This document shows positions 1,447 to 63,201 of a stretch of DNA of 64,000 nt, piece by piece; the stretch's first letter is position 1, and each line of letters begins with the position of its first letter. This stretch comes from Thermoplasmatota archaeon (GTDB taxonomy: Archaea; Thermoplasmatota; E2; DHVEG-1). The notes under the pieces are model-generated. The model ran no database searches and was not told the origin of the DNA. It saw only the letters and a list, made by a program, of their open reading frames with translations. The stretch is from positions 157-64,156 of the forward strand of contig JBAZLE010000001.1 of NCBI GenBank assembly GCA_041650455.1. The letters are read 5' to 3'. The position numbers were made by a program, and so were the translations under genes.

Positions 1447-1564
1447 TGCAGGGGAAGGGATTTGAACCCTCGGACTCCTGCGAGACAGGATGTCTCATCA
1501 CACGAACCTTTCTTGTGTTTTGATCTTAAGTCCTGCGCCGTTGGCCATGCTTGGCTACCCCTGC
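1447..1564 (-). tRNA. tRNA-Leu(UAA) with a ~33-nt intron at the canonical 37/38 position
   Basis: The minus strand reads GCAGGGG-TA-GCC...GGC-G-CAGGA-CTTAAG[intron]A-TCCTG, then a long variable arm TCTCGCAGGAGTCC, a T-arm GAGGGTTCAAATCCCTT, and CCCCTGC-A. The acceptor stem is 7 bp, the fold is class II, and the anticodon is TAA. Confidence 0.75.
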
Positions 1565-1584: not shown

Positions 1585-1656
1585 TGCGGACGCCGGGATT
1601 CGAACCCGGGCAAGAGGCTTGGAGGGCCTCAATCATAACCACTAGATCACATCCGC
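1585..1656 (-). tRNA. tRNA-Gly(UCC)
   Basis: The minus strand reads GCGGATG-TG-ATC..GAT-T-GAGGC-CCTCCAA-GCCTC-TTGC-CCGGGTTCGAATCCCGG-CGTCCGC-A. The cloverleaf is canonical with a GTTCGAATC T-loop and anticodon TCC. Position 33 is C, which is unusual. No CCA is encoded. Confidence 0.7.
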
Positions 1657-5259: not shown

Positions 5260-5566
5260 GCTGGGCGTAGGTGGACGGTTGACGGTGACCTTTCCGGTTG
5301 CTGAGGAAAGTCCTCTCTCACTCTGAATCAGGATCCTGCGCAAGCAGGTAAGGCGAGAGTCTTAGCAGAGGAACAGAAACGACACAGCCCTTGGATTATG
5401 CGATGATTCACCTGGTGATGAGGTCTCCTTGGGATTTGGTGAAACGGCCAATCTGCTCCTGGAGCAAGCCCAAACATCGGGATCAGTTATTCAGACTGCT
5501 CGTAGGTAGGGCGCATCAGACAAATACCGTTAAAACAGAAAGAGGCTTACGGCCTACACCCAGCAC
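5260..5566 (+). ncRNA. rnpB: RNase P RNA (archaeal rnpB, ~307 nt)
   Basis: Noncoding stretch with a CR-I GAGGAAAGTCC motif and a CR-V-like ACAGAAAGAGGCTTA motif. A GGAGCAAGCCCAAACATCGGG segment resembles the archaeal type-A consensus. P1 forms between 5260-5271 (GCTGGGCGTAGG) and 5553-5564 (CCTACACCCAGC). P4 shows compensatory covariation (5' CCTCT with 3' AGAGG, versus the usual CCGGG/CCCGG). A TATA-like TTTATAA lies ~27 nt upstream. Confidence 0.75.
5539..5566 (+). repeat. rnpB 3'-terminal 28-nt segment (attL-like copy 1 of a direct repeat family)
   Basis: AAAGAGGCTTACGGCCTACACCCAGCAC. It is identical over 28 nt to 9117..9144, and diverged copies lie at 9757 and 10923. Confidence 0.8.
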
Positions 5567-33534: not shown

Positions 33535-33847
33535 TCAAAAACCCCATTCAACTAACTGAGATGTTTTTTTAAACGTTTTTGAAGAAAAAATATTTTGAAA
33601 ACCAAACTTTGCAGTTAATCTTAAAAACCTTTGAACTATATATTGATATTCGAAAATAGGTTTGGATGTAGGTGCGCTTTTGAATACTATAAAATCATTT
33701 AATAGTAAAAACGATGAAAAAGATATCAATACGATAGTAGATGATCTCCTTCGTAGGGCAAGGTCCCAAAAGTACAGGAAAAAATCCTTCCATAATCATT
33801 TTTCATCACAAAAAACACCTCTAAGATGTTTAACCTCTGATGTAACA

Positions 33848-36800
33848 ATGATTTTCATGTTTATGGTCTCAGTCTTTGTTTTATTCGTCCCAATCCTATC
33901 TCTCTCTATTGTCTCTACCCCAGCTGAGATTAACCAGCATGAAATCTCTATATCGTTCACTCCTGAAACTGTTCATAGTAATGACACGATGCTCATAGAA
34001 GTTCGCGTACCTATCTATCTTGACATTTATTCGATTGTTGCTGATATGGGCGGCATCGAACTTGTCGTCTTGTCCTATGTGGAGAATAATTCATATCTCG
34101 AGGTATGGCAAGCAACTTGGATGCTTCCTGGTGTTGGTAATGGTTCTTATCTTTCTTTTATCACTTTAGTGAATAAAACAGATGCCTGTTTTAAAGTAAA
34201 CAAAACATGGACTGTCATATCAGATGAACGAATCGAAAAAGGATTTCTTATAGATAATAGTACTAGGGAGACGTATCTTCAAATAAACCACACAAACATC
34301 TCAAACCAACGCAATAAAAATGTCGGGGTCATATCATCCAATATTAGCGATAAAAATCAAACGCATGCGCTCTTGTTAACGGACACTTTTTTTGAAAACC
34401 TCTCTCAATCAGAGAATATCACAACCAATGTTCCAACAAATCTAGGTGAAGCGGATTGGTCGATAACCGAGACTGCGCTTGGTAATTCCCACAAACGAGT
34501 GCGTATCAGCAGTGACGTTCATTATACAAATGTTACTGCATTTACCACGATAGACAATCGGCCAAGGAATTCAATTCATCTCTACCATATGATCAATGGT
34601 TCAAGAACAGAAATAGATTTTTCTTCTTTTGATTTAGATAACGATGGCTTTGTAGATAGAATCGAATGGATTGTTCCTCATTTATCAGAACAAACCTATG
34701 AAATTATCATCGAAATAACCAAAGCGGAACACCTTGATGCCGCTAGAGTCTTTCTTTCAGATATCTACGCTGAGGTAAAGCAAGCAGATGATGTCTGGTC
34801 AGAATCAATTCACAACGAAGAGTTTGTCCGAGTAACGTTTGAAAAAGCATTAGATGCAGGTAATGATATTACTATTGTTGCACGAAGTGCTGGGGTGTCC
34901 CGTATCGAGGTGTATGCAAAGGGCAGTCAAAAGCTTATCACCACTTTTCAGAACGTCACCACAGAAAATAAGTATCAGGTTTTTTTAACAAGCTTAACTG
35001 AAACGCAAACCACCTTTGACCTTAAGGTCTGCGGAGATACCGTTGAATATGATTATATCGTCGACCCCACGGGTTGGATCTCACCGACGGGGCATGCTGA
35101 TCCAAGCAACCAATGGAGTAATGAACTAAGGGCGTATGATGGAAATACTGGTACGTATGCATCTCAGACAGGAGCAATCGGGTGGCGAGGGTTTATTGAA
35201 TTCACCTTGACCAATCCGATATACTGCGACCGTGTACGGGTTTTTTCTGATTTTGGTTATGGTGTTGTTGATCTTGTTGACATCGATGTTTACAATAGCA
35301 CAACCTGGGTGGATAAGTATAATGGCACTATTTCGGATGCAACCTGGACAGAGATAAGTTTTCCTGCTGAAACCAATGTGACAAAAGGTAGATTTCGTTA
35401 TCATTTTTTAGCAGGTGGATGGATTTTTTGGCTCTATGAATTTGAGTTCTGGCAAGGTCAACAATTAACATTACCAAATGGCACAACTCTGAATGTGACA
35501 TCGATTGATGAAACAACTGCGATTTTACGAGGAAATGTTAGTGATGACGGTGGAGAGCCTTGTGAATATCGATTCCAATATGGGACCGATACCACCTATG
35601 GGATTAACACAACATGGGGTGGGAGTAGAGTGAGTGGGTCTGAATTTGGAACGATGATTCATAATCTTAACCTTAGTCAAACCTATCAGTTCAGAGTACA
35701 GATTCGTAATAGTATCGGCACCGTAAATGGTTCAAATAATAGTTTTACCACCGCAGTTCCACCGCTTGGATGGATTTCTCCAACCAGCCATTATGATTCA
35801 AATTCTAAATGGGAAAACGAGGAAAACAGCTATGATGATGATACCGGTAGCTTTGCGCGTTCTTATCATAGCGTGAATGACCCTAATGGACAATGGAGCT
35901 CTTTCCTTTACCTGAATCACAGCACTTTAGTATGTGATAAGGTTCGTTTTTATGCAAAGGGACCAACAGGGGATAGTATTCAGATTGATCAAGTCGATCT
36001 TGATGTATACAAAGGTGGGATTTGGGTTGACGTCTACCAAGGTGTGTTTTTAGATAAACAGTGGGTGGAAAAAAATTTCGTCCAGGGGAATGTGACGACA
36101 GCACGGATAAGGTTCCGCGTCAATACAAACAATGGTGGCTTATATTATGAGCTCTATGAGTTTGATTTCAATAAATCAAGACCTGTCCCAATCATCTCTA
36201 ATGCAGGTCCAACTAATGGAAGCTGGGGGGTAAATCTTCGGCCGCAGATGAACATCACCGTGGCTAACCCTGATGGAGCCAACATGACGATCTATTGGTA
36301 TAGTAACAGTAGCGGCTCTTGGCAACTTTTTGGCCTTAATACTTCCGTTGTGAATGGAACTTATCATCAATGGAACAATAACTTTAGTAACAACAATACT
36401 AAATATTGGTGGAAAGTGCTAGTCACAGACGGAACGGATTCGAATTCTTCTTCGTATTATTTTTCAACACCAGATACTATTAAACCTAGCTCAAATGTCG
36501 TAGCAATCTCACCATACTGGAAGAAAACTAGTCCGTTGGCGATAACAGCCACCGCTACAGATGCTGGATGGAGCGGATTGAAAAATGTGACTTTGTTTTA
36601 TCGATTTAGTGGGAATAATGTTTCTTGGGGTGGATGGAAGTTAGTAAGTGTAGACTCCACTTCGCCTTGGTCCTGGAATTTTGCGTTTTCAAACGGAAGT
36701 GGATTTTATCAGTTTTATAGTATCGCTTGCGATTATGCAACCAATGAGGAATCTTTTACAGGAATTGCTGATTCCTGGTGTGGATACGATAATGTAGCAC

Positions 36801-38656
36801 CAACATCATCTGTTTTTGTAATCTCTCCATACTGGACGAACGTCGGAACCACGATTAACGCAACAGCTAGTGATGCTACTAGTGGCGTACGGAACATCAC
36901 GTTGTATTATCGATTCAGCCCTAACAATGTATCCTGGGGTGACTGGATGAGTGTAGGTATTGATTTAATCCAACCCTGGGTTTGGAATTTTGGTTTTTCT
37001 AATGGAAGCGGACATTACCAATTTTATAGTAGAGCAAGGGATACTGCAACAAATTCGGAATCCATTCCCGTGGTTCCTGATGCCTGGTGTGGATATGATA
37101 CAACTATTCCAAGTTCCTTCGTTAACCCAATATCCCCCTACTGGAGAAACACTAATGTAACAATTCATGCAAGCATGGACATCATAGGACCTAGTGGTCT
37201 AAAGAATGTCACCTTATTTTATTATCATTCTATAGATAACATGACTTGGTCCGGGCCCTGGAAATATAGCAGCGATGAGGATCCATGGGCTGTGTGCAGT
37301 TGGGATTTTACATTTCCTAATCAAACAGGATATTACAGGTTCTATTCCGGTGCCGCAGATAACAGCAGCAACACAGAAAACCCTCCTGTCGTCAACGACA
37401 CCAGATGTGGATTTGATAATCAATCTCCAATATGTGCGATTGCCTATAATCGGTCGGCATCGTATTTGAAAAGCAATGATTCCCTACAAATTCTTGTTTT
37501 CTTTACCGAGCCACTCTCTGGTGTAAATGAATCGAATGTCATTATAAGTATTGCGACAATGGGTGACGGGTCCCTTACGAATGTCACCATGAGTCAAATC
37601 AATGACACCTTTTGGTATTATAATTGGACTATTCCTGCTGGCTCAGATGAAGATGGACCTTTTACCGTACAGATTTATGCAAATGATCGGGCATCAAATA
37701 ACCTTTCCCCATATCCAACCAGTGATTCGACAAGACGAATAGACAATACTGCGCCGATGATTTCTGCAGTTTCTGTAGATAATATAACTCTCGAATCCGT
37801 CGTCATCAACTGGATAACAGATGAAAATACAACGAGTAGTGTCGAATATGGGACTACTATCGCATTTGGACTCTGGTTCAATGACTCTGATTTTCTGATG
37901 TCTCATACGTGTCTATTAATGAATTTATCTTCAGGTAGTACGTATCACTTTCGTATATTCTCGTATGACCTGGCAGGGAATTTTTATGCATCATCTGGAA
38001 GCACCTTTGTGACAAGTAGTCAATCGACGTCAAATAAAAGACCACTGACGAACACCCTAATTCAAAATAGCCCTCCTACAAATCCAACAATCGAAGGCCC
38101 ATCTCATGGTGACATCCATGTTGAATATAGCTTCACGGTCCGGTCAGGAGATGCAGATTTCGATTCCATTCGATATACTTTCAATTGGGGAGATAGCAGT
38201 ATAGAATCAAGTGGATTTTCACCAAGCAATGTCTATTGTGTTAGAAATCACAGTTGGTCAAGAGCAGGAAAATATTCAATAAAGGTTTCAGCAAGTGATA
38301 ACAACACAACCTCTTCGTCTGAAAAAACAATCTGGATCGATGCGCTTGCTGTTGTTGGTTTAGGATATCTTTTAGACACGAACAGCGACGAAATATTCGA
38401 TGTATTCCATAACAATATGACCGGATTGGAAACTTTAGTCGAAATGAAAGATGAGGGAATCTATCTTATAGATTCTGATGGTGACAAACAATGGGATTAC
38501 AAATATTGCGTATCTACCGATATGCTTTCGATGATAGTTCGACAATCCATAAATACTGAAACAAGACAATTTCCCTTTTTGTTGATTGGACTGTTCTTCT
38601 GCCTGGTCATCTTATTCTCACTCCTGTATTTCCATAGGCGGGCTCTAAAAAAATAA
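33848..38656 (+). CDS. Giant secreted, heavily N-glycosylated cell-surface protein with a C-terminal membrane anchor (~1600 aa)
   Basis: The signal peptide is at the internal Met (MIFMFMVSVFVLFVPILSLS), so the track ORF 33662 was trimmed. Dozens of N-x-S/T sequons, a duplicated ~135-aa GWISPT domain, FN3-like and PKD-like segments, and 3 tandem 105-aa repeats are present. The C-terminus FPFLLIGLFFCLVILFSLLYFHRRALKK is a TM helix plus basic tail. Confidence 0.75.
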   Translation: MIFMFMVSVFVLFVPILSLSIVSTPAEINQHEISISFTPETVHSNDTMLIEVRVPIYLDIYSIVADMGGIELVVLSYVENNSYLEVWQATWMLPGVGNGSYLSFITLVNKTDACFKVNKTWTVISDERIEKGFLIDNSTRETYLQINHTNISNQRNKNVGVISSNISDKNQTHALLLTDTFFENLSQSENITTNVPTNLGEADWSITETALGNSHKRVRISSDVHYTNVTAFTTIDNRPRNSIHLYHMINGSRTEIDFSSFDLDNDGFVDRIEWIVPHLSEQTYEIIIEITKAEHLDAARVFLSDIYAEVKQADDVWSESIHNEEFVRVTFEKALDAGNDITIVARSAGVSRIEVYAKGSQKLITTFQNVTTENKYQVFLTSLTETQTTFDLKVCGDTVEYDYIVDPTGWISPTGHADPSNQWSNELRAYDGNTGTYASQTGAIGWRGFIEFTLTNPIYCDRVRVFSDFGYGVVDLVDIDVYNSTTWVDKYNGTISDATWTEISFPAETNVTKGRFRYHFLAGGWIFWLYEFEFWQGQQLTLPNGTTLNVTSIDETTAILRGNVSDDGGEPCEYRFQYGTDTTYGINTTWGGSRVSGSEFGTMIHNLNLSQTYQFRVQIRNSIGTVNGSNNSFTTAVPPLGWISPTSHYDSNSKWENEENSYDDDTGSFARSYHSVNDPNGQWSSFLYLNHSTLVCDKVRFYAKGPTGDSIQIDQVDLDVYKGGIWVDVYQGVFLDKQWVEKNFVQGNVTTARIRFRVNTNNGGLYYELYEFDFNKSRPVPIISNAGPTNGSWGVNLRPQMNITVANPDGANMTIYWYSNSSGSWQLFGLNTSVVNGTYHQWNNNFSNNNTKYWWKVLVTDGTDSNSSSYYFSTPDTIKPSSNVVAISPYWKKTSPLAITATATDAGWSGLKNVTLFYRFSGNNVSWGGWKLVSVDSTSPWSWNFAFSNGSGFYQFYSIACDYATNEESFTGIADSWCGYDNVAPTSSVFVISPYWTNVGTTINATASDATSGVRNITLYYRFSPNNVSWGDWMSVGIDLIQPWVWNFGFSNGSGHYQFYSRARDTATNSESIPVVPDAWCGYDTTIPSSFVNPISPYWRNTNVTIHASMDIIGPSGLKNVTLFYYHSIDNMTWSGPWKYSSDEDPWAVCSWDFTFPNQTGYYRFYSGAADNSSNTENPPVVNDTRCGFDNQSPICAIAYNRSASYLKSNDSLQILVFFTEPLSGVNESNVIISIATMGDGSLTNVTMSQINDTFWYYNWTIPAGSDEDGPFTVQIYANDRASNNLSPYPTSDSTRRIDNTAPMISAVSVDNITLESVVINWITDENTTSSVEYGTTIAFGLWFNDSDFLMSHTCLLMNLSSGSTYHFRIFSYDLAGNFYASSGSTFVTSSQSTSNKRPLTNTLIQNSPPTNPTIEGPSHGDIHVEYSFTVRSGDADFDSIRYTFNWGDSSIESSGFSPSNVYCVRNHSWSRAGKYSIKVSASDNNTTSSSEKTIWIDALAVVGLGYLLDTNSDEIFDVFHNNMTGLETLVEMKDEGIYLIDSDGDKQWDYKYCVSTDMLSMIVRQSINTETRQFPFLLIGLFFCLVILFSLLYFHRRALKK
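36473..37414 (+). repeat. Three tandem in-frame ~315-nt (105-aa) coding repeats within the surface protein
   Basis: Units start at 36473, 36788 and 37097. They share the blocks ISPYW..NVTL(F/Y)YR(F)S.NNVSWG.W......PW.WNF.FSNGSG.YQFYS.A.D.ATN.ES......D.WCGYD. Confidence 0.7.
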
Positions 38657-38747: not shown

Positions 38748-40382
38748 TCAATTTAATAAATCTATCAAGGAGAGTGCAGCTTGGATGTTCTTTGACGCAG
38801 AGATGCTTTCGATGATTCTTTCTATTAGAATTACTACGGATTGTGACCAGCGGAAAAATTTTAGTGTTAATACTGCGTGTTGCATCCTTTGTAGGGACAT
38901 CTCGTAGTTATCCTCCCAAAGGGTCCCAATGATTCCTTGTGAAGCGTTTGGTGCGTACAACCAAAGAAGTTCTGTAAGAAACGCCTGTTCCTGCATGTTC
39001 TTATCAAGCTCTGTGAGGAACGAAGTGATGTTGATACCACTGTGAATCATCAAAAGGGCGAGTGCTTCATTGGCTTCATTTTCGAACAGAAATACTGTTT
39101 CTACACCCTGGCACAGGGCTGTTATATTTCCATGACCATATTTCTGAAGCAGCTCGAGAGATACTGCAGCTGCCTCTCCGGTCTCGTAGGGGTCGTAGAA
39201 ATCGTTATCACAGATATGTACTGGGACATAAATCGAAGAGCACGCATGGTTTGCAGCAAACCACCCACTGCTTAACATGTCTGGATGGTCTTTTGGTATT
39301 TTAAATACCATCGCAGCCTCGTACAGGTAACGATCCTCACACAGGGGGCGAAGTCCATCAAGCTCTGCGGTATGCATCCGTGACCAGCGGATCATGTCCT
39401 GTACGGTGATAGTACCAATCGCAGGTTGTATCTTTTCGAGAAGCTCCTGTTCCCATGCATACACTGATGTACACATCGAAATCTTTGCGGTATTTTCCTC
39501 TATTTCCAACAGTTCTACACGAAATGGTCCGATAGTTGCTTGTTCCCCTACTGAGAGGGTGACTTGGGTGTCTTGCTCTTTATAAGTAAACAGGAATGCA
39601 GGGGCTACTGTTAGGGTAATCGTAGAAGGCGTTATTTGTTTGATTCGCACCCCACAGACAGACCCAAGACGGACAGTAGCGCCACGTCGAACCACTGTTT
39701 CTTTCTGTGCATCAAATGACGATGCAATCGGCAGCGATCTGATGAGCTGGGTTCGCCAAAGGTCTTTTGGGTAATTGGACATGACGAGAACTTCAGAGAT
39801 ATTTTTTATCGTGTACCGTAGTGCATCTGCTTCGATGACGACTGCTTTCTGAGGGCCAACCAAAAACAGATTCTCTGAGACGCCGGTGGCATGAAGCCGA
39901 TCTGTTGCTTCCTTGGTAAGTAAGAGGACTGCGTCGTCTTCGTTATCTGCGGTTTGGCAGGCGTACCTGATCCAATCAAAGTCATCCCATGCGTTCTTTG
40001 TTGGGTTAATCCAGTGTGAAAGCGTGTCTGCATCACCAAAGGCAAGTCCAGCATCAGTCAGTACCATCCCTGCTTTGACGATATTGGGGGGTGTGTCTCC
40101 CTGTGTTGCGACACCAAGAAACGTATGGGTGACAGTAAACTCCCAGGGTCTTCCGGTCCAGGGATGATGATAGGTGTAAAGTATCCCTTTTGGCACTCTG
40201 CAAAGGACTTGTAAGCCTTCGCGACTCGGGTCTCTGACTTTTAAAAAAAGACTGTAGTCGCCAGCAGTTGCCTCAGAGGGTATCACGATATCCTTGCAGC
40301 TTTTTCCAGCAGGGAGCGTGAGTAGAGAACAGAACAGAATGGATAGGAAAAGAATCGAAAGTACTTTCTGTTTTTCCCTCAT
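38748..40382 (-). CDS. Secreted hypothetical protein (544 aa); possible Ntn-hydrolase-like fold, which is speculative
   Basis: Signal peptide ending ..LPAGKSC. No confident domain assignment. Confidence 0.55.
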   Translation of the reverse strand: MREKQKVLSILFLSILFCSLLTLPAGKSCKDIVIPSEATAGDYSLFLKVRDPSREGLQVLCRVPKGILYTYHHPWTGRPWEFTVTHTFLGVATQGDTPPNIVKAGMVLTDAGLAFGDADTLSHWINPTKNAWDDFDWIRYACQTADNEDDAVLLLTKEATDRLHATGVSENLFLVGPQKAVVIEADALRYTIKNISEVLVMSNYPKDLWRTQLIRSLPIASSFDAQKETVVRRGATVRLGSVCGVRIKQITPSTITLTVAPAFLFTYKEQDTQVTLSVGEQATIGPFRVELLEIEENTAKISMCTSVYAWEQELLEKIQPAIGTITVQDMIRWSRMHTAELDGLRPLCEDRYLYEAAMVFKIPKDHPDMLSSGWFAANHACSSIYVPVHICDNDFYDPYETGEAAAVSLELLQKYGHGNITALCQGVETVFLFENEANEALALLMIHSGINITSFLTELDKNMQEQAFLTELLWLYAPNASQGIIGTLWEDNYEMSLQRMQHAVLTLKFFRWSQSVVILIERIIESISASKNIQAALSLIDLLN

Positions 40383-52941: not shown

Positions 52942-53964
52942 TTACATTGTCTTCGGCTCAAAAATCGTTTTATGCAGCACCAGGTTACTTGCGAAAAACC
53001 ATATCGGAGGGATGAAGGCAACGAGGATGATGTACATATTCAACGAGCTTAACATAAGGGGGGTAGTCGCATACATGAAAATAACAATGATCCCAATCCA
53101 TCTCCTGATACGTGCCCGGTCGAAGGTTTTAATCGAAAACATTTTATGAATAGAAAAAAACGTAGCAATCGCAAGCAACACCAGTACTATTATCTGCCAG
53201 AGGTTGTACGATAATCCCAAAACAACAAAGGGGAGGAAAATCAAGCCGATCCGTAGGATTTCTATCAGATATCCTGTCGTTTTAAACGAGAGAGGTAAAG
53301 CAATAACGCCCGCCTGTATCTTTGCCCCGAGGCGTATCGCAACTGTGTTCGCACTCCCTGCTTTATCATGGTCGATATCCTTAACGGCACCATTTATCAT
53401 ATTCATGAAAAGAACCTGTATCCCTCCTATTAAGGCGACAATATAGGTTAACCCTGTCGGAGTACCGATTGTCCATGCTCCAAAGAGAATCAGGAAAAAA
53501 ATAGCACCGGCAAGCACAAGATCCATTCCCGGGTATTTCTTGCTCAGCACATCATAAAGAGTTGCTAAGAAATACGCGATAAGAAGAATGGAGGCAAGTA
53601 CAAGAAAAGTAAAAAACTCAGAGAAAAAAACAAAAGATAGGAGGAACGAACCAATCATACAAACAATTGCAAAAAGTACTGCACGCGTTCGGGTAAGACT
53701 TCCTCGGACTAACGGTCGAGCGAGCAGTTCTTTGGAGAGCTTATCGAGTCGAACGTCGATGACATCGTTAATCACAAATCCGTAAATATGGGCGAGACAT
53801 CCGATGATGAATAAAATACATAACTGCCAAAGAGGTAACGAGCCCACATCCCCCATAGACAACGCACCGAGAACAGGAGCAACAGCGGTAAGGCCCATGT
53901 TGAACAGACGTGTTATCTCAATGTAATCACGGAGCATTAACACAGAAGTAAACCAGAGCCCCAT
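52942..53964 (-). CDS. UbiA family prenyltransferase (DGGGP synthase-like)
   Basis: Polytopic membrane protein with NDVIDVRLD (NDxxDxxxD) and a second Asp-rich motif. Confidence 0.75.
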   Translation of the reverse strand: MGLWFTSVLMLRDYIEITRLFNMGLTAVAPVLGALSMGDVGSLPLWQLCILFIIGCLAHIYGFVINDVIDVRLDKLSKELLARPLVRGSLTRTRAVLFAIVCMIGSFLLSFVFFSEFFTFLVLASILLIAYFLATLYDVLSKKYPGMDLVLAGAIFFLILFGAWTIGTPTGLTYIVALIGGIQVLFMNMINGAVKDIDHDKAGSANTVAIRLGAKIQAGVIALPLSFKTTGYLIEILRIGLIFLPFVVLGLSYNLWQIIVLVLLAIATFFSIHKMFSIKTFDRARIRRWIGIIVIFMYATTPLMLSSLNMYIILVAFIPPIWFFASNLVLHKTIFEPKTM

Positions 53965-54022: not shown

Positions 54023-55039
54023 GTGCTAGAAAAACTTCGCTCGTTCGCAGACATCGGTCGGACGCAAGGGATTACCACATCGGCGTCCGTTGCGATAGTT
54101 GGTGCCTTAACCTCAACAATCTCCGTGGAATGGTACCATATCGTTTATTTAACGATCCTTTCGATTTTCGCCCACATGGTCTTAAACACCTATATTGCGT
54201 TAGGCGATGTCGAACTTGACGCACAAACGTATGTCCCATCCAGAAACCCGGTTATTAGTGGTCTTCTAACGAAAAGAGAAGCAATACTGTTTTTCTATAC
54301 TGGGACTATCGTTTGTCTACTGTTAATTGCACTTCTTTTATTCTCAATTGATTCTCTCTTTGTTCTCCTGTGCTTTCTATGCTCCATTCCTGCCTTTGGA
54401 TCTCTCATCTGGTATGGTTGGAAAGGGAAAAAAGTCATCATCTCTTATGATTTTACATTTTCAATTTCATATACCTTTTTTGTACTCTTCGGAGTATTCG
54501 CGGTAGGAGGGATGCCAACAACATATACCTGGATTTTCATTGGGGCTGTCATCTTTGCAGCTACCGCGTTTGCTCAATGGGAAAACGGTCTGAAGGACGT
54601 TGATGCAGACCGCAGTGTCGGAGTCAAGAGCTTTGCTGTTGTCACTGGTGTGAGAAACAATCAAAAACTTCATTTTACACACCCATACTTCCTCTATGGA
54701 TGTAGTTTAAAAATCGGATTCCTTCTCTGCGTTTTTCTCGGATATTGGTACTCGCGGGACATCAATTATCTGCTCTTCTTTTTAGTGTACGGAATTCCAT
54801 CCCAGATCTACATTATGTATCGATTTTTAGTAAAACAAAAACCACAAGACCACCGACGAACAATTCTTCTTGATGTGACCTTTACTGCAATCCTTGCGTA
54901 CTCAACCATCTACGGGTACACCGGAATCGTGCCTATTGTCTTACTGATTATCTACCTCATTGGGGGATACCTGATTGGATCTTTGATACAATCAAATTGT
55001 GAATTTAAATTTGGAAGATTCTCTGTTTTACGGAAATAA
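54023..55039 (+). CDS. Second UbiA family prenyltransferase (divergent paralog)
   Basis: Polytopic protein with ALGDVELD and ENGLKDVDADRS Asp-rich motifs. Confidence 0.7.
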   Translation: MLEKLRSFADIGRTQGITTSASVAIVGALTSTISVEWYHIVYLTILSIFAHMVLNTYIALGDVELDAQTYVPSRNPVISGLLTKREAILFFYTGTIVCLLLIALLLFSIDSLFVLLCFLCSIPAFGSLIWYGWKGKKVIISYDFTFSISYTFFVLFGVFAVGGMPTTYTWIFIGAVIFAATAFAQWENGLKDVDADRSVGVKSFAVVTGVRNNQKLHFTHPYFLYGCSLKIGFLLCVFLGYWYSRDINYLLFFLVYGIPSQIYIMYRFLVKQKPQDHRRTILLDVTFTAILAYSTIYGYTGIVPIVLLIIYLIGGYLIGSLIQSNCEFKFGRFSVLRK

Positions 55040-55057: not shown

Positions 55058-57255
<2,198 letters not shown>

Positions 57256-57330: not shown

Positions 57331-60300
57331 TTACTTCTGTTTTCCAGGTTTTAGGATGATCGCATGACCTGATCGTCCATCTAACTTGACGTGTAACGGC
57401 GCGGGGAGATGCACATGATCCACATAATTCAATTTTCTCATCACACGCTGTTTCTCGAGCCATTCGCAATCGATAAAACAACTGTCTGAGTTCAAAGGGA
57501 TATCAATATAACCAATCCCATGGCTGATCATGTTCTGGAAGAAGTGGGTTCCTTGTGATGGTTTAATGTTGAAATTCTCAAGAGCAGTTTCAATGATAAC
57601 CCGTGCACCGGAGATTTGTCCCCAGCGGACGGGAATCCCCAGCCATCGATCCTGTGTACCCCATCTGCCAGGTCCCATGAGAACATAGGGAGAGGCAGAT
57701 GCAAGGAGCGTTTTGTTAATCTTCCCAATTTCTTCAGCAATTTCGACGGTTTTTGAAGAATCGAAACGATCAGAGGGAACATACACAATATCTTGGATCG
57801 TATGAATCAATCCATTGCCTAATGCTCGATTGGAGCGGATGAAGATTTCTTTTTTTGCTATATTACTGTCCCACCCGATATCAAGCGGTTCTATGGAAAC
57901 GACAAATGGTCGAATCTGGAGGATCGCAAAGGTGGGCGAGGTGCGGGTTTGTGGATCGATATTCACTGCAAATTCAAATTCTACGGGACAGCCCATCCCT
58001 TTCTGACCAAGCAGTAACAGGTCTTTTAGGATCGGTGCGAGGGGAAATGCATCATATTTCAGTATTCCTGCAAACGTGATTAAGGGGGGTCCTGTTTCCG
58101 CTAAACCATCCCGAATGACACCATCGTTTCGATCATAGCTACTTGCCACAAGGTCAAGGGATCCATCGTTTCTAATATCGCTTGTTTGCAGTTTAATGAT
58201 AGGAGTGTTATGAGGGTCTAGAAGCTGGAAGTCTCTATTGTTCATGTTTAACACATACAGCTCTCGCTGTGTATGTTCAAGGACCAACTCTGGTGAGGAA
58301 AAATCAGGAGTGATCCCTGGAAAGCTAGGGCAGAACCGGAACACCTTCTCCCCGCCCACCACTGCTTTTCCAAGGCCCACCGCAATATTTACAATTCCCT
58401 CCTCGGGAGTCTGGTGAGCGATCGGATAGAAATTATAGGATTTTGCAACCCCGGAAAACGTAGGATAATATCTTCCATCGTATTCACTTCCGACAAGCTC
58501 TTGGATGATAACCGCCATTTTTTCCTCTTCGATCTTCAGGGAAAGGGATTCTGCATACGCCTTAGGCTCTCTGAAAAACACAGACGCGTAGACAAGTTTA
58601 ATGGCTTGGCAGAGTTGATTTAACCGCTCTTCATCCTCCTCATGGTTGTTCGGCAATAGATGTGTTGAGTACAACCCTGCAAATGGATGATTTTGATAAT
58701 CCTCTAGCAGGCTTGACGATCGCACAGCAAGTGGCGTTCGGAAATGTTGTAAAATCACGTTTAGTTTTTGTTTTAACTCACCGCAGATATCACATTCGAG
58801 GAACGCATGCGCAATCTCTACATCGGTGCGCTGTTCATTTTTGAAAAAACGATGTAGGTTATGATCTGAGACAAAACGATCGAATTCAAGAGTCCCGATC
58901 ACCACGGTGTTCGGTACTTTGATTTTAACATTTTTATATTTTTCTTCTAATTTGTAATGCGTCAAAAGTGATCGCATGAAGGCAAGACCTCGTCCTTTTC
59001 CTCCCAGGGAATCTCCTCGTAATCGTGTAAAGGAGGAGTCAAACTCAAATTTTTGTTCATTGAAGTCAGTAATAATCCCTTGTTGTTTGCTTTTTCGCGC
59101 CTTGTTAAACACTGAAATGAGATACTCTCTAGCTGCATCCAGATTCGAAAAATCAGATACTTTTTTCGGTCGCAATTCTTTCGCTAAATCAAATTCACAG
59201 CGCGCCATGAGCCAATTGGAGAAATGATTTCGTTCGGAATGATAGATGATGGATTCCATCGGTATTCTCTGGAGTGCTTCTTCAAATTCTCGCATGTTTG
59301 AGGCCCGATCAATCTCTGTCGTCTGCACATGTTGCCTCTCAGACCCTGTCAACATCGGTTTCTTTTTCTGTATTTTATTCTCCTTAGGCAACAAAAACAA
59401 GAAATCACCAAAACCAAGATGGTTCACGAGGAAATGCTGGAAGTCGAGTACCAACGTAGGGGATTTCTTATGTAAAAAATAAGCATCTAATAGATCTGCT
59501 TTTTCTCTGTTAGCCAAATCGGTGGATTGCATCATGATGGGAAGATGAATCGACTCTTGTCGTATCAATCGCACAAACTCAAATCCTGCAGCATGATTCA
59601 CTCGCCCGTCCTTTTTAAACACAACATCTGAGAGAATTCCCAGGATGTAGTCCTTGTATTTTTTATAATAATACATGGCTTCTTCAAATGTCTCCGCAAG
59701 CAGAATCTTTGGTCGTGCCCTGCGACGTAATTGTCGCTGCATCTCATTGAGATCCTCAGAAAGAGATCGTCGAGTCTGCTGGACGACTTCGGTATAGAGC
59801 ATCGGCAGGAACATTGAGTAATGATAGATAGAATCCTCAACCATGATCAGAACACGAACATTCCCATTGACTGTGTCATATCGAACGTTCACACTGTCCT
59901 CGACATATTTGATAATAGCAAGAAACAGGGTAGGGTCTCCAGTCCAAGCGAATATTTTATCAACCCCTTTTTTGACATCCTCGCGGTCCTGGAACTGGTT
60001 GATATCCGCTCGATCCGTAGCAAGTAAAACGATGGGTAACCCAGGATGCAGTTGCTTGATTTTTTTCCCAAACTCAAACGGGTCCATCCCAATGTTTTTT
60101 GCCATGGTGATAATCAAGTCGTATCGATGTTCTTTGAGTTTCTGTATCGCGTTTTTCCCTGAGAACACACGGGTCACTCGCGGAGGTTGGCTGAGCAGAA
60201 GATGCTGATATTGTCCGATGACGAGTTCTGCGATTAATCCTTCTTCCTCGATGGTAAAGGCATCATACAAGCTTGAGACAATAAGGATGTCTTTGACTCG

Positions 60301-60402
60301 AAACGGCATGAGAGCATGGTAGATCTGCGTGCCTAGGTCGTAGGTTCCTTCAAAATCGTCTTGTATCCGTGTACTGTGAAACCCTGTCTTTTCTACTTTC
60401 AT
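57331..60402 (-). CDS. Large multidomain protein: two receiver (REC)-like domains plus a PEP synthase/PPDK N-terminal (ATP-grasp, PPDK_N) domain
   Basis: The C-terminal half has GGKGRGLAFM and VRSSSLLEDYQNHPFAGLYSTHL, which are the PPDK_N signatures. The N-terminal ~330 aa consist of two CheY-like alpha/beta units (KDILIVSS...DLII, VRVLIMVEDS...). No phosphohistidine or PEP-utilizer domain is present. Confidence 0.7.
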   Translation of the reverse strand: MKVEKTGFHSTRIQDDFEGTYDLGTQIYHALMPFRVKDILIVSSLYDAFTIEEEGLIAELVIGQYQHLLLSQPPRVTRVFSGKNAIQKLKEHRYDLIITMAKNIGMDPFEFGKKIKQLHPGLPIVLLATDRADINQFQDREDVKKGVDKIFAWTGDPTLFLAIIKYVEDSVNVRYDTVNGNVRVLIMVEDSIYHYSMFLPMLYTEVVQQTRRSLSEDLNEMQRQLRRRARPKILLAETFEEAMYYYKKYKDYILGILSDVVFKKDGRVNHAAGFEFVRLIRQESIHLPIMMQSTDLANREKADLLDAYFLHKKSPTLVLDFQHFLVNHLGFGDFLFLLPKENKIQKKKPMLTGSERQHVQTTEIDRASNMREFEEALQRIPMESIIYHSERNHFSNWLMARCEFDLAKELRPKKVSDFSNLDAAREYLISVFNKARKSKQQGIITDFNEQKFEFDSSFTRLRGDSLGGKGRGLAFMRSLLTHYKLEEKYKNVKIKVPNTVVIGTLEFDRFVSDHNLHRFFKNEQRTDVEIAHAFLECDICGELKQKLNVILQHFRTPLAVRSSSLLEDYQNHPFAGLYSTHLLPNNHEEDEERLNQLCQAIKLVYASVFFREPKAYAESLSLKIEEEKMAVIIQELVGSEYDGRYYPTFSGVAKSYNFYPIAHQTPEEGIVNIAVGLGKAVVGGEKVFRFCPSFPGITPDFSSPELVLEHTQRELYVLNMNNRDFQLLDPHNTPIIKLQTSDIRNDGSLDLVASSYDRNDGVIRDGLAETGPPLITFAGILKYDAFPLAPILKDLLLLGQKGMGCPVEFEFAVNIDPQTRTSPTFAILQIRPFVVSIEPLDIGWDSNIAKKEIFIRSNRALGNGLIHTIQDIVYVPSDRFDSSKTVEIAEEIGKINKTLLASASPYVLMGPGRWGTQDRWLGIPVRWGQISGARVIIETALENFNIKPSQGTHFFQNMISHGIGYIDIPLNSDSCFIDCEWLEKQRVMRKLNYVDHVHLPAPLHVKLDGRSGHAIILKPGKQK

Positions 60403-60599: not shown

Positions 60600-61088
60600 A
60601 TGACTATAAAAATCATTGTCACAGGTGGGACATTCGATAAAGAATACGATCCGTTAACCGGTCAATTATATTTCAAAGGAACCCATGTCATCGAGATGCT
60701 TCGACTTGGGAGATCGCGGATACCTGCTCAAATACAAAAAATAATGATGATGGATAGCCTTAGTATGACCGAAACCGACAGAAGACAAATCCTTGCTGAG
60801 TGTCAGAAGTCCACACAGGATAAAATCCTGATCACCCATGGGACGGATACCATGGTGGAGACCGCAAAACTCCTCGGTCAGCATATCAAAGATAAGACAA
60901 TCATTTTGACCGGTGCGATGATCCCCTATGCATTTGGCAGCTCTGATGGTCTCTTTAACTTAGGGAGTGCGTTAGCGTTTGTCCAAACACTCCCCGCTGG
61001 AGTGTACATCTCTATGAATGGGAAATACTTTCATTGGGATAACGTTCGAAAGAATAAGGAAGTCGGATTATTCGAACCAATCAAATAA
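60600..61088 (+). CDS. Short asparaginase N-domain protein (162 aa)
   Basis: IIVTGGTFDK and ILITHGTDTM, the asparaginase/glutaminase N-terminal threonine motifs. No C-terminal domain is present. Confidence 0.65.
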   Translation: MTIKIIVTGGTFDKEYDPLTGQLYFKGTHVIEMLRLGRSRIPAQIQKIMMMDSLSMTETDRRQILAECQKSTQDKILITHGTDTMVETAKLLGQHIKDKTIILTGAMIPYAFGSSDGLFNLGSALAFVQTLPAGVYISMNGKYFHWDNVRKNKEVGLFEPIK

Positions 61089-61207: not shown

Positions 61208-62587
61208 TTACACGATCCCTTGATCCAGCATTGCATCAGCGACTTTAACGAATCCTGCGATATTGGCTCCTTTGATATAATCGACCTTCTCGTTCGATAT
61301 TCTTCCGTATTTCACGCAGGCTTCATGGATGTTCTTCATGATTTGATGAAGGTGCTGGTCGACCTCTTCGGCGGTCCAGTTCATCCGCATGCTGTTCTGT
61401 GACATCTCAAGACCTGAGACGGCGACACCACCGGCATTCGCTGCTTTCCCTGGAGCATACATCATTTTCTCTGTGGCAAACTTTGCGGCATCAGCGGTAC
61501 AACCCATGTTCGAAACCTCCACGACAAGCATACAACCATTTTTTAACAATTGTTTCGCATCCGTCAGGTCCAATTCGTTCTGGGTCGCACAGGGCATAGC
61601 GATATCACATTTCACTTCCCATGGTCTTTTCCCTGCGTAAAAGGGAACTTTAAATTTCTTTGCATAATCCTCGACTCGATCGTTATTTGACGCACGCATC
61701 TCAAGCATATATTCGATTTTCTCTCCTGTAATCCCGTCTTTGTCATAGATGTATCCATCGGGGCCAGAAAGGGTCACAACCTTGCCGCCAAGTTCATTGA
61801 TCTTTAAGGCGCATCCCCAGGCGACGTTCCCGAATCCTGAGAGCGTCACGGTCTTTGCTTTGAAACTCTCGTTTTTCAATTTCAGCATCTCAGACGCAAA
61901 ATAGACAGCTCCATACCCGGTCGCCTCAGGGCGAATCAGACTACCGCCCCAATTTCTCCCCTTTCCAGTGAGCACACCGGTGAACTCATTTCGGAGTTTC
62001 TTATACATTCCGAACAAATATCCGATTTCCCTACCACCAACACCGATATCACCAGCGGGCACATCGGTATTCGGACCGACATGTCGGAATAATTCCATCA
62101 TAAAGGATTGACAAAACCGCATGATTTCCATGTCTGATTTTCCTCGGGCGTTGAAATCAGAGCCACCTTTTCCCCCGCCCATTGGCAGGGAAGTCAAACT
62201 GTTTTTGAAAATCTGTTCGAAACCAAGGAATTTTAAAATGCTTAAATTGACACTCGGATGGAATCGCAGACCGCCCTTATACGGTCCAATCGCGCTGTTA
62301 AACTCAACGCGGTATCCTCTGTTCACCTGGATTTCCCCTTTGTCATCGACCCAAGGGACACGGAACATGATCATACGCTCAGGTTCCACGAGACGTTCGA
62401 GGATTTTTGCTTTTTTATACTTCGGGTTTTTTTCGATAAATGGCATGACGCTTTCAGCGAATTCCTGAACCGCTTGATGAAATTCTTTTTCACCAGGGTT
62501 TTTTTCCATGACTTTTTCCATGAATGTTTTCACGTTTTCATCCATAAGGATAGCCTCCAACTGTTCGTGGTCCGTATCAGCCTCCAT
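61208..62587 (-). CDS. gdhA: Glutamate dehydrogenase
   Basis: GGGKGG glutamate-binding loop, GFGNVAWG NAD(P) motif, ~459 aa. Confidence 0.9.
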   Translation of the reverse strand: MEADTDHEQLEAILMDENVKTFMEKVMEKNPGEKEFHQAVQEFAESVMPFIEKNPKYKKAKILERLVEPERMIMFRVPWVDDKGEIQVNRGYRVEFNSAIGPYKGGLRFHPSVNLSILKFLGFEQIFKNSLTSLPMGGGKGGSDFNARGKSDMEIMRFCQSFMMELFRHVGPNTDVPAGDIGVGGREIGYLFGMYKKLRNEFTGVLTGKGRNWGGSLIRPEATGYGAVYFASEMLKLKNESFKAKTVTLSGFGNVAWGCALKINELGGKVVTLSGPDGYIYDKDGITGEKIEYMLEMRASNNDRVEDYAKKFKVPFYAGKRPWEVKCDIAMPCATQNELDLTDAKQLLKNGCMLVVEVSNMGCTADAAKFATEKMMYAPGKAANAGGVAVSGLEMSQNSMRMNWTAEEVDQHLHQIMKNIHEACVKYGRISNEKVDYIKGANIAGFVKVADAMLDQGIV

Positions 62588-62736
62588 TATTAAAATCTAT
62601 GTATTGGGACGGGAAAAAAACAAGAAAAAATAAGGTGATTTACTGTTATGATGTATGGTTCCAATGTGTTCTTTTTTATCGTAAGGTATTAATAGAGATT
62701 ACAGATTCAAAATTCAACTATCGGGGGACAACTTAC

Positions 62737-63201
62737 ATGAAAACAGCAGATGTCGACAGAATTCTCAAAAAACATGAATATACTAAATCTGCATTAATAC
62801 CCATCCTTCAAGATATCCAAGCAGAACATCGTTGGCTCCCTTGTGAGACCCTCAAGTATGTTTCAGAAAAACTTGACATTCCCCTCATCGATGTCTATAG
62901 CCTCGCTACCTTCTATAAATCATTTAGTCTCAAACCACGAGGAAAACATGTGGTGACAGCGTGTTGTGGAACTGCGTGTCATGTCCGAGGTGGTCCAAAA
63001 GTTCTACAAGAAATACAAAATGAATTACATATTGGTATTGATGAGACCACACCTGATCAGACATTTACTTTAGAAACGGTCCGCTGCCTTGGTGCTTGTG
63101 CACTTGGACCACTTGTAGTTATTGATGGAAAATATCATGGCCAGATGAATACAAAAAAAGTCGCTTCTACATTAAAAAAATACGCGAAGAAAAAGAAATA
63201 A
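62737..63201 (+). CDS. NuoE/HoxE-like 2Fe-2S thioredoxin-like diaphorase subunit
   Basis: CCGTACHVRG...CLGACALGPLVVIDG cluster. Trimmed to the internal Met. Confidence 0.8.
   Translation: MKTADVDRILKKHEYTKSALIPILQDIQAEHRWLPCETLKYVSEKLDIPLIDVYSLATFYKSFSLKPRGKHVVTACCGTACHVRGGPKVLQEIQNELHIGIDETTPDQTFTLETVRCLGACALGPLVVIDGKYHGQMNTKKVASTLKKYAKKKK

Follow-up and report, generated by a model that had tools for sequence, protein, structure and literature searches.

A widespread, previously uncharacterised family of receiver-bearing ATP-grasp proteins and its genomic association with glutamate dehydrogenase

The window analysed here is a stretch of 64,000 nucleotides (nt) from the Thermoplasmatota archaeon contig JBAZLE010000001.1. 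It contains a gene for a protein of 1023 amino acids (aa), which belongs to a previously uncharacterised, widespread family of conserved layout. The dominant genomic partner of this family is glutamate dehydrogenase (GDH), a strongly marked association that has not been reported before. We propose, with a probability of roughly 0.55, that the product of the family gene is a dikinase-like signalling enzyme that transfers phosphoryl groups at the expense of ATP, is regulated through a receiver and is functionally coupled to GDH. A preliminary description of the gene, based on the sequence of the window, had presented the product as two receiver-like domains fused to a phosphoenolpyruvate (PEP)-synthase ATP-grasp domain and had connected it to the adjacent NfnAB-like genes. 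The type of enzyme suggested there agrees with our evidence, and the lack of a swivel domain was recognised correctly. The C-terminal domain with its conserved histidine was overlooked, as were a DUF5752-like segment and the GDH gene 805 nt upstream, and the link to NfnAB proved to be lineage-specific.

The open reading frame (ORF) is present on the minus strand as described, and its product is identical to the NCBI protein MFA5101567.1 from a Candidatus Thermoplasmatota archaeon metagenome-assembled genome, where it is labelled 'PEP/pyruvate-binding domain-containing protein'. Five modules can be delineated: a pseudo-receiver, a receiver, a DUF5752-like segment, an ATP-grasp domain of the pyruvate phosphate dikinase (PPDK) type and a C-terminal domain without matches (Table 1). 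The AlphaFold model of the whole protein has a predicted local distance difference test score (pLDDT) of 83.7 and a predicted template modelling score (pTM) of 0.69. Other family members are found in NCBI under the labels 'hypothetical', 'PEP/pyruvate-binding domain-containing', 'DUF5752 family' and 'histidine kinase'. The last of these names has no domain basis, because neither HisKA/DHp nor HATPase_c was matched by Pfam in the 1023-aa protein or in 43 diverse relatives, the panel used in all Pfam scans of relatives (pass at E<=0.001). DNA-binding domains were likewise not found by Pfam in these proteins, and from its sequence a role as a transcription factor is unlikely. PADLOC gave no anti-phage defence match, and no paper on a family with the architecture REC*-REC-DUF5752-ATP-grasp-CTD was found in the literature. 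All counts of residue conservation given here refer to 349 full-length family members.

The ATP-grasp domain is recognised clearly, PF01326 (PPDK_N) matching residues 464-835 with 126.7 bits against a cutoff of 27 and being present in all 43 relatives. The two signatures that had been read in the C-terminal half of the protein were located at residues 467-476 (GGKGRGLAFM) and 560-576 (VRSSSLLEDYQNHPFAG). Residues K469, R561-S562-S563, E567-D568, Q634, E810, Q829 and R831 are kept in 345-349 of the members (K469, R561 and Q829 in 349, E810 in 348 and R831 in 345), and by comparison with PPDK and PEP synthase they correspond to the residues that bind ATP and Mg. The nearest solved structure found by Foldseek is the ATP-grasp of HpeI (9goj, E 5.5e-10), and PPDK (1kbl) was also matched. 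HpeI is the ATP-grasp subunit of the two-component dikinase HpeHI and shares homology with the ATP-grasp of rifampin phosphotransferase (RPH); the activity of HpeHI needs a His carrier located on the partner subunit (PMC12167813).

With PEP synthase and PPDK the protein shares the PF01326 ATP-grasp, its GGKG and RSS...ED...FAG signatures, the E/Q/R residues for Mg-ATP and the fold seen in 1kbl. It differs from them in that neither PEP_mobile (PF00391, GGxTSHAA) nor PEP-utilizers_C (PF02896) was detected by Pfam in the protein or in the 43 relatives, the receivers and an unrelated C-terminal domain being there instead. The swivel and PEP/pyruvate-binding domains are thus missing, as had been stated earlier, and for the swivel the same result was obtained by PDB-profile and fold searches. 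No canonical PEP synthase that could serve as a swivel reference was found in the window. The NCBIfam matches are weak, partial and limited to the N-terminal-domain part of the models: 51.1 bits against a cutoff of 883 (NF004881) and 34.1 against 739.75 (TIGR01418) for PEP synthase, 48.1 against 1300 for PigC and 21 against 999 for RPH (NF041857). With all equivalog scores so far under the cutoffs, the protein is, on sequence grounds, not a canonical PEP synthase, PigC or RPH; a canonical full-length PEP synthase or an RPH homologue is what the preliminary description had named as speaking against its own proposal.

Among characterised systems, RPH, HpeHI, phenylphosphate synthase PpsAB and PigC/RedH have an ATP-grasp of the PPDK type, homologous to that of the family and with identical catalytic residues, and HpeI is the best structural match. 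RPH is similar also in having a domain C-terminal to the ATP-grasp with a conserved histidine at the N-terminus of a helix, and in having no PEP/pyruvate barrel. In contrast to the RPH/HpeHI-type enzymes, the C-terminal domain of the 1023-aa protein is not a swivel (Pfam, PDB profile, Foldseek), two receivers and the DUF5752-like segment precede the ATP-grasp, the equivalog models, whose cutoffs are 883-1350, give it 21-51 bits, and the family occurs in the context of GDH rather than of antibiotic or aromatic catabolism. In its probable mode of action, the protein comes nearest to RPH-/HpeHI-type dikinases that have been given the input part of a response regulator. It belongs to none of these groups, since both the swivel domain and the equivalog scores were tested and neither places it among RPH, HpeHI or PEP synthase.

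The C-terminal domain was folded alone by AF2 with a pLDDT of 93.9 and a pTM of 0.90, and in the AlphaFold model of the whole protein it follows a lower-confidence linker (residues 831-850). The isolated domain has no Pfam match even at E<=10, no PDB sequence-profile match, and no fold match in the PDB or BFVD at E<=1e-3, the best template modelling (TM) score being about 0.3. Its motifs are a GPGRWG loop (910-915), LGIPV (921-925) and PSQGTHFFQN (948-957), and G912 and R913 (347/349), E938 (348/349) and H953 (347/349) are among the most conserved residues of the protein. H953, the sole near-universal histidine, is placed by the model at the N-terminus of a helix behind the Gly-containing PSQG(T/S) loop. 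A divergent swivel homologue was considered, as PSQGTHFFQN...GIGY resembles the swivel motif GGxTSHAAI..RE.GIP and the order of secondary structure elements is similar. Homology is not supported, given the lack of Pfam, PDB-profile and PDB/BFVD fold matches, so the likeness to the swivel would be a functional analogy, not homology. Short matches on long contigs were also considered as naturally split genes with a stand-alone C-terminal domain, and were found to be frameshifted or truncated gene calls. At two loci (L091 3690-6603 and L092 5514-6807) the family gene itself is called as several short frameshifted ORFs, which are probably assembly indel errors or pseudogenes; calls of this kind account for part of the short-protein matches to the C-terminal domain.

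The segment between the receivers and the ATP-grasp domain is matched by PF19027 with 22.9 bits in the whole protein, against a cutoff of 23, and with 30.7 bits when isolated; 13 of the 43 relatives match as well. In this segment W397 is invariant and H388 near-invariant, residues 342-356 form a disordered loop, and no PDB sequence match was obtained.

At the N-terminus, the two CheY-like modules of the preliminary description are marginal by Pfam in this protein. The whole sequence scores 32.3 bits against the receiver cutoff of 30.2, and the modules scanned singly score 25.1 and 14.4 bits, so that the Pfam result for this protein alone comes close to the failure of receiver thresholds which had been put forward as an argument against the description. 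The identification is nevertheless firm, because the relatives, the profile-profile comparison and the fold agree. A receiver match is found in 34 of the 43 relatives. Comparison by hhalign with CheY, Spo0F and PhoB and with two receivers from the examined loci gave 95.4% for module 1 and 96.3% with E 2e-9 for module 2, and the AlphaFold model matched PleD-type tandem receivers and single receivers in Foldseek with TM 0.75-0.79. Like PleD (REC-REC*), the protein has tandem CheY-like folds, one of them with an acceptor Asp, in front of an enzymatic output domain (fold E 5e-9 to 1e-7). Unlike in PleD, the pseudo-receiver comes first, the output is ATP-grasp and not GGDEF, and in module 2 alpha1 is followed by an additional helix (about residues 200-231) and the acceptor Asp by a beta-hairpin.

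A conserved receiver Asp is present in module 2 (D259) and absent from module 1. Module 1 has S43-S44 in place of the acidic pair, M100 on CheY D57 and W153 at the Lys position, and position 100 is Asp in none of the 349 members. From its sequence, then, module 1 is a pseudo-receiver. It terminates in a helical linker whose E168, D169 and D176 are invariant. Together with W153 these residues (region 153-176) are kept in 344-349 of the members, more strictly than D259, and this conservation pattern suggests a functional site or domain interface that has escaped recognition. In module 2 the hhalign alignment places D259 on CheY D57 and S293 on CheY T87, and the pocket is well kept (E189 in 342, D190 in 299, D259 in 338, S293 in 340 and K312 in 343 of the members), D190 being replaced by Asn in 41. 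Eleven members are without D259 and usually also without D190 and K312. Since all of them keep H953 and the ATP-grasp set, the core of the protein would be the ATP-grasp plus the His-bearing C-terminal domain, with receiver 2 as a regulatory input.

Exhaustive searching gave 4,707 representative clusters (defined at 50% identity) at E<=1e-3, and 1,107 when the limit was tightened to E<=1e-30. Nearly all of the best 150 representatives align over query residues ~25-1020 at 33-52% identity, and 120 full-length proteins share 58-97% identity with the 1023-aa protein. A scan of species genomes found at least 597 with a family member. Among the matches listed, the archaeal carriers include Thermoplasmatota, Bathyarchaeota, and Hermod- and Heimdallarchaeota, and the bacterial carriers include Zixibacteria, Ignavibacteria, Bacteroidota (cultured Mariniphaga and Marinifilum), Acidobacteriota, Gemmatimonadota, Desulfobacterales, Cloacimonadota, Fibrobacterota, Planctomycetota and Actinomycetota. 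Some bacteria have tandem family paralogs (L074 1706-4669 and 6760-10348), and one member of 1639 aa has two PPDK_N domains. N-terminal extensions of 170-580 aa are present in a few members, and C-terminal extensions also occur; no Pfam domain was found in them and so they give no clue to function.

The gene neighbourhood was surveyed at 83 family loci, GDH being counted within 10 kb. GDH lies near the family gene in 48 of them, with a median gap of 205 nt and a gap of less than 500 nt in 35, and when only loci with at least 2.5 kb of flank on each side are taken, it is found in 31 of 50. All four relative orientations of the two genes occur, and the adjacency is spread over bacteria and archaea, in more than 15 phyla. 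When about 1,000 flanking ORFs were clustered without bias, GDH emerged as the sole widely shared neighbour (47 loci), followed by NuoF-like (11 loci) and NuoE-like (7 loci) proteins. Two further GDH-adjacent loci (L084, L091) were met incidentally. The partner belongs to three classes of GDH. One is the family-I type of 450 aa, to which the GDH of the window belongs; another, divergent and of ~400 aa, was found in a Bathyarchaeota locus (L002; ELFV_dehydrog, 402 aa, 21% identical); the third is a large Bac_GDH, present at a Victivallales locus (L072). The secondary neighbours, namely glutamine synthetase (GlnA), Glu_synthase-domain proteins, NuoEF-GltD fusions, an aminotransferase, a peptidase and NfnAB, all serve the turnover of glutamate, nitrogen and NADPH.

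The GDH of the window matches PRK14030 with 777 bits, against 204 bits for the archaeal GdhA model, and PDB entries 1bgv and 3sbo with E of about 1e-175. This archaeal genome thus has a GDH of the bacterial family-I type. Within the sample compared, it is nearest to the GDHs of Ignavibacteria (70%) and not to those of other Thermoplasmatota, and its sequence suggests acquisition by horizontal transfer or replacement.

In several Bacteroidota loci (L029, L043, L084) the family gene either comes immediately downstream of a family-I gdhA or converges with it. According to the title of a 1996 paper by Baggio and Morrison (J Bacteriol 178:7212), the activity of Bacteroides thetaiotaomicron GdhA reportedly depends on one or more trans-acting genes downstream of gdhA. 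On the strength of that title, the family gene as the trans-acting GDH factor of Bacteroides is a lead only. BT1971 of B. thetaiotaomicron was found to be a catalase and gives no help with this lead. The complementing fragment of B. thetaiotaomicron DNA was reportedly about 3 kb long, as is the family gene.

The connection to NfnAB claimed in the preliminary description can be maintained in part. The pair is co-oriented with the family gene, the distance to the NfnA-like gene being 54 nt to the TTG start of the ORF or 75 nt to the ATG at 57255. The PRK06222 profile begins at this ATG, and a TTTAAA box lies within the 75-nt spacer. In orthologs of 73-84% identity the order GDH, family gene, NfnA-like gene, NfnB-like gene is found on one strand, with GDH ~110-125 nt upstream of the family gene wherever the asparaginase-like ORF known from the window does not lie between them. 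The adjacency to NfnAB is thus kept in close Thermoplasmatota relatives. In the family as a whole, however, NfnA is found in only 4 of the 83 loci, compared with 48 for GDH, and NfnB/GltD-like genes in 10, and NfnAB was rejected as a conserved partner of the family. Genes for redox reactions and NADPH recycling recur among the neighbours, but in second place behind GDH. The asparaginase-like ORF, which has the N-terminal domain only, occurs in the window and its nearest relatives (L085 and L086) and in none of the 83 other loci; it was discarded as a partner and is a lineage-specific insertion outside the conserved pair.

Table 1. Features of the 1023-aa family gene and its neighbours in the window.
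Feature	Position	Strand	Support
Whole gene, 1023 aa, ATG start	57331..60402	-	ORF list
Module 1, pseudo-receiver, residues 35-180	59863..60300	-	hhalign 95.4%, secondary structure
Module 2, receiver with intact acceptor pocket, residues 181-318	59449..59862	-	hhalign 96.3%, E 2e-9
Codon of D259, candidate phospho-acceptor of module 2	59626..59628	-	alignment to CheY D57
DUF5752-like segment, residues 319-462	59017..59448	-	PF19027
PPDK/PEP-synthase-type ATP-grasp, residues 463-835	57898..59016	-	PF01326, fold match
C-terminal domain, residues 836-1023, ~190 aa	57334..57897	-	AF2 fold, conservation
Codon of H953, candidate phospho-carrier	57544..57546	-	conservation, structure model
GDH, family-I hexameric type, 459 aa, 805 nt upstream of the family gene	61208..62587	-	PRK14030
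NfnA-like FAD/NAD(P) and [2Fe-2S] subunit, directly downstream	56434..57255	-	PRK06222, 421 bits
NfnB/GltD-like NADPH-binding subunit	55058..56437	-	TIGR01316, 634.7 bits
162-aa ORF, asparaginase N-terminal domain only, between GDH and the family gene	60600..61088	+	PF00710, 95.4 bits
NuoE/HoxE-like [2Fe-2S] subunit, divergent from GDH	62734..63201	+	profile match

The description as a signal-regulated phosphotransfer enzyme rather than a metabolic PEP synthase agrees with the essentially invariant ATP-grasp residues, the equivalog scores far below threshold and the conserved receiver pocket. To our knowledge, every characterised enzyme with a PPDK-type ATP-grasp (PPDK, PEP synthase, RPH, HpeHI) phosphorylates a histidine. 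For this reason we propose that ATP would be used to form phospho-His at H953, on a tethered C-terminal domain that substitutes for the swivel domain. From there the phosphoryl group would pass to a target, which is likeliest GDH itself, whose activity would in this way be controlled post-translationally; alternatively, the target could be a metabolite from the glutamate/2-oxoglutarate node. Module 2 could serve as the regulatory input, D259 receiving a phosphoryl group from a kinase or from a small phosphodonor such as acetyl phosphate, and module 1 could act as an adaptor. Such a place for D259, regulatory rather than in the core, would follow from its loss in the 11 members mentioned above. 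In the Thermoplasmatota host the enzyme may tune the deamination of glutamate, coupled to the recycling of NADPH by the downstream NfnAB. There is a functional analogy with the Enzyme I-Ntr (PtsP) of the PEP-dependent phosphotransferase system (PTS), in which a sensor module gates His-based phosphotransfer to protein and the output is tied to glutamine/2-oxoglutarate status. In both cases an N-terminal sensory module would precede an enzyme that belongs to the wider PEP-utilising superfamily and transfers phosphoryl groups by way of His. In PtsP, however, PEP, a GAF sensor, a canonical swivel and a TIM barrel are involved, none of which applies to the 1023-aa protein.

Several points weigh against the proposed signalling enzyme coupled to GDH. 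In 35 of the 83 loci (~40%) no GDH of the 400-450-aa type is found within 10 kb, and the neighbours there are heterogeneous (malic enzyme, H+-PPase, DUF1015, chemotaxis proteins, histidine kinases). In a mirror-tree comparison the pairwise divergences of the family and of its GDH neighbours gave a Spearman coefficient of 0.30, which is not decisive, and co-evolution was given up as a proof of the coupling. The role of H953 as a phospho-carrier would rest on analogy, not homology, and the C-terminal domain could be a ligand sensor instead. Replacement of D190 by Asn in 41 members indicates that phosphorylation of the receiver may not be universal. Biochemical or genetic data were found in the literature for no family member, and we know of no PPDK-type ATP-grasp enzyme that acts as a protein kinase. 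The most far-reaching version of the proposal is a doubtful one, namely that the family might be an ATP-grasp-driven, His-dependent protein kinase with a new phospho-carrier fold, covalently switching GDH in response to the receiver signal and possibly being the trans-acting factor of Bacteroides.

The protein could instead be a small-molecule dikinase. By the route from ATP over His~P to substrate that RPH, HpeHI and PEP synthase use, it would phosphorylate a metabolite, for instance one related to glutamate or 2-oxoglutarate, and not a protein; the DUF5752-like segment or the C-terminal domain would bind this substrate, and the receivers would only gate the reaction. The characterised ATP-grasp relatives all act on small molecules (partial NCBIfam matches to PEP synthase, PigC and RPH; HpeI as top fold match), the catalytic set and H953 are invariant, and the neighbours are metabolic enzymes of one node. 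We nevertheless consider it unlikely, as no recognisable substrate-binding domain, either a PEP/pyruvate barrel or one of the RPH type, was found by Pfam in the protein and the 43 relatives, two receivers and a signalling layout of 1000 aa are odd for a pathway enzyme, and glutamate catabolism is not known to have an obvious gap at a phosphorylation step. Another reading takes the conserved histidine and the conserved receiver Asp of one polypeptide as a self-contained phosphorelay, in which the ATP-grasp would load H953, the phosphoryl group would go to D259 of the same protein and the phospho-state would govern binding to GDH or other partners, as the counterpart, driven by an ATP-grasp, of a hybrid histidine kinase. 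In two-component chemistry receivers naturally take their phosphoryl group from His~P, archaeal lineages are among the carriers of the family, and neither flanking-gene clustering nor the neighbour survey showed a kinase as a conserved neighbour at the family loci. The 'histidine kinase' label of some NCBI members points the same way, but it stands without HisKA or HATPase_c. The 11 members that have lost D259 (usually with D190 and K312) and keep H953 and the ATP-grasp residues, and the further 41 with Asn at position 190, make this arrangement quite improbable, and a relay from H953 to D259 as the sole function was down-weighted for the former reason.

GDH might also be regulated allosterically, by direct binding of a non-catalytic sensor whose ATP-grasp binds ATP, ADP or AMP and whose C-terminal domain binds, for example, 2-oxoglutarate or glutamate. 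GDH is classically under adenine and guanine nucleotide control in other organisms, R913, E938 and H953 could form a ligand pocket, and the C-terminal domain is without swivel similarity. Retention of the Mg and catalytic residues E810, Q829, R831, K469 and R561 in nearly every member is commoner in active enzymes, which renders such a sensor very unlikely. Finally, shared regulation or chance synteny could have brought together GDH and an enzyme of an unrelated process, as the GDH-less loci with their varied neighbours and the weak mirror-tree correlation would allow. The adjacency, however, is observed in 58% of the loci against ~1% expected by chance for a single-copy gene within 10 kb, a rough genome-size estimate made without control families. 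It survives rearrangement into four orientations across archaea and many bacterial phyla, and in the Victivallales locus a non-orthologous large GDH takes the place of the partner. We therefore regard the absence of any functional tie as highly improbable.

In addition to these genes, a module divergent from GDH is found in relatives, consisting of a NuoE-like protein, a 1053-aa NuoE-NuoF-GltD fusion, a Fer2_4/Fer4 protein and a 526-aa protein with a Glu_synthase domain (L085 1-4638, L087, L089 and L002 5772-11200). It recurs in Thermoplasmatota, Bathyarchaeota and one unrelated metagenome contig, and its composition points to a glutamate synthase in split form with a link to NADH or ferredoxin. 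In the window, NfnAB is followed by two divergent genes for UbiA-family prenyltransferases at 52942..53964 (-) and 54023..55039 (+), and the layout is the same in the nearest relative. Elsewhere in the window there are an archaeal RNase P RNA at 5263..5561 (+; 165.7 bits), two tRNAs at 1447..1564 (-) and 1585..1656 (-), the former of which is 118 nt long and probably contains an intron, an ORF of 544 aa at 38748..40382 (-) without a Pfam match at E<=1e-5, and an ORF of 1664 aa at 33662..38656 (+).

GDH stands at the junction of carbon and nitrogen metabolism and is a main catabolic enzyme in the anaerobic peptide-degrading lineages among the carriers. That a family of 1000-aa proteins, conserved in hundreds of species, tracks three classes of GDH and yet is without a described function suggests that a layer of GDH control has been missed. 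H953 and D259 are concrete candidate sites for its study, and tractable hosts exist among the carriers, with a possible bearing on the old observation on Bacteroides GDH, as worded in the title of that paper. If the proposal is true, the dikinase superfamily of PEP synthase and PPDK would gain a swivel-less form with an unmatched His domain and two-component-type inputs. If, in addition, the protein were a kinase acting on GDH, this would mean widespread post-translational control of a central enzyme in both bacteria and archaea.

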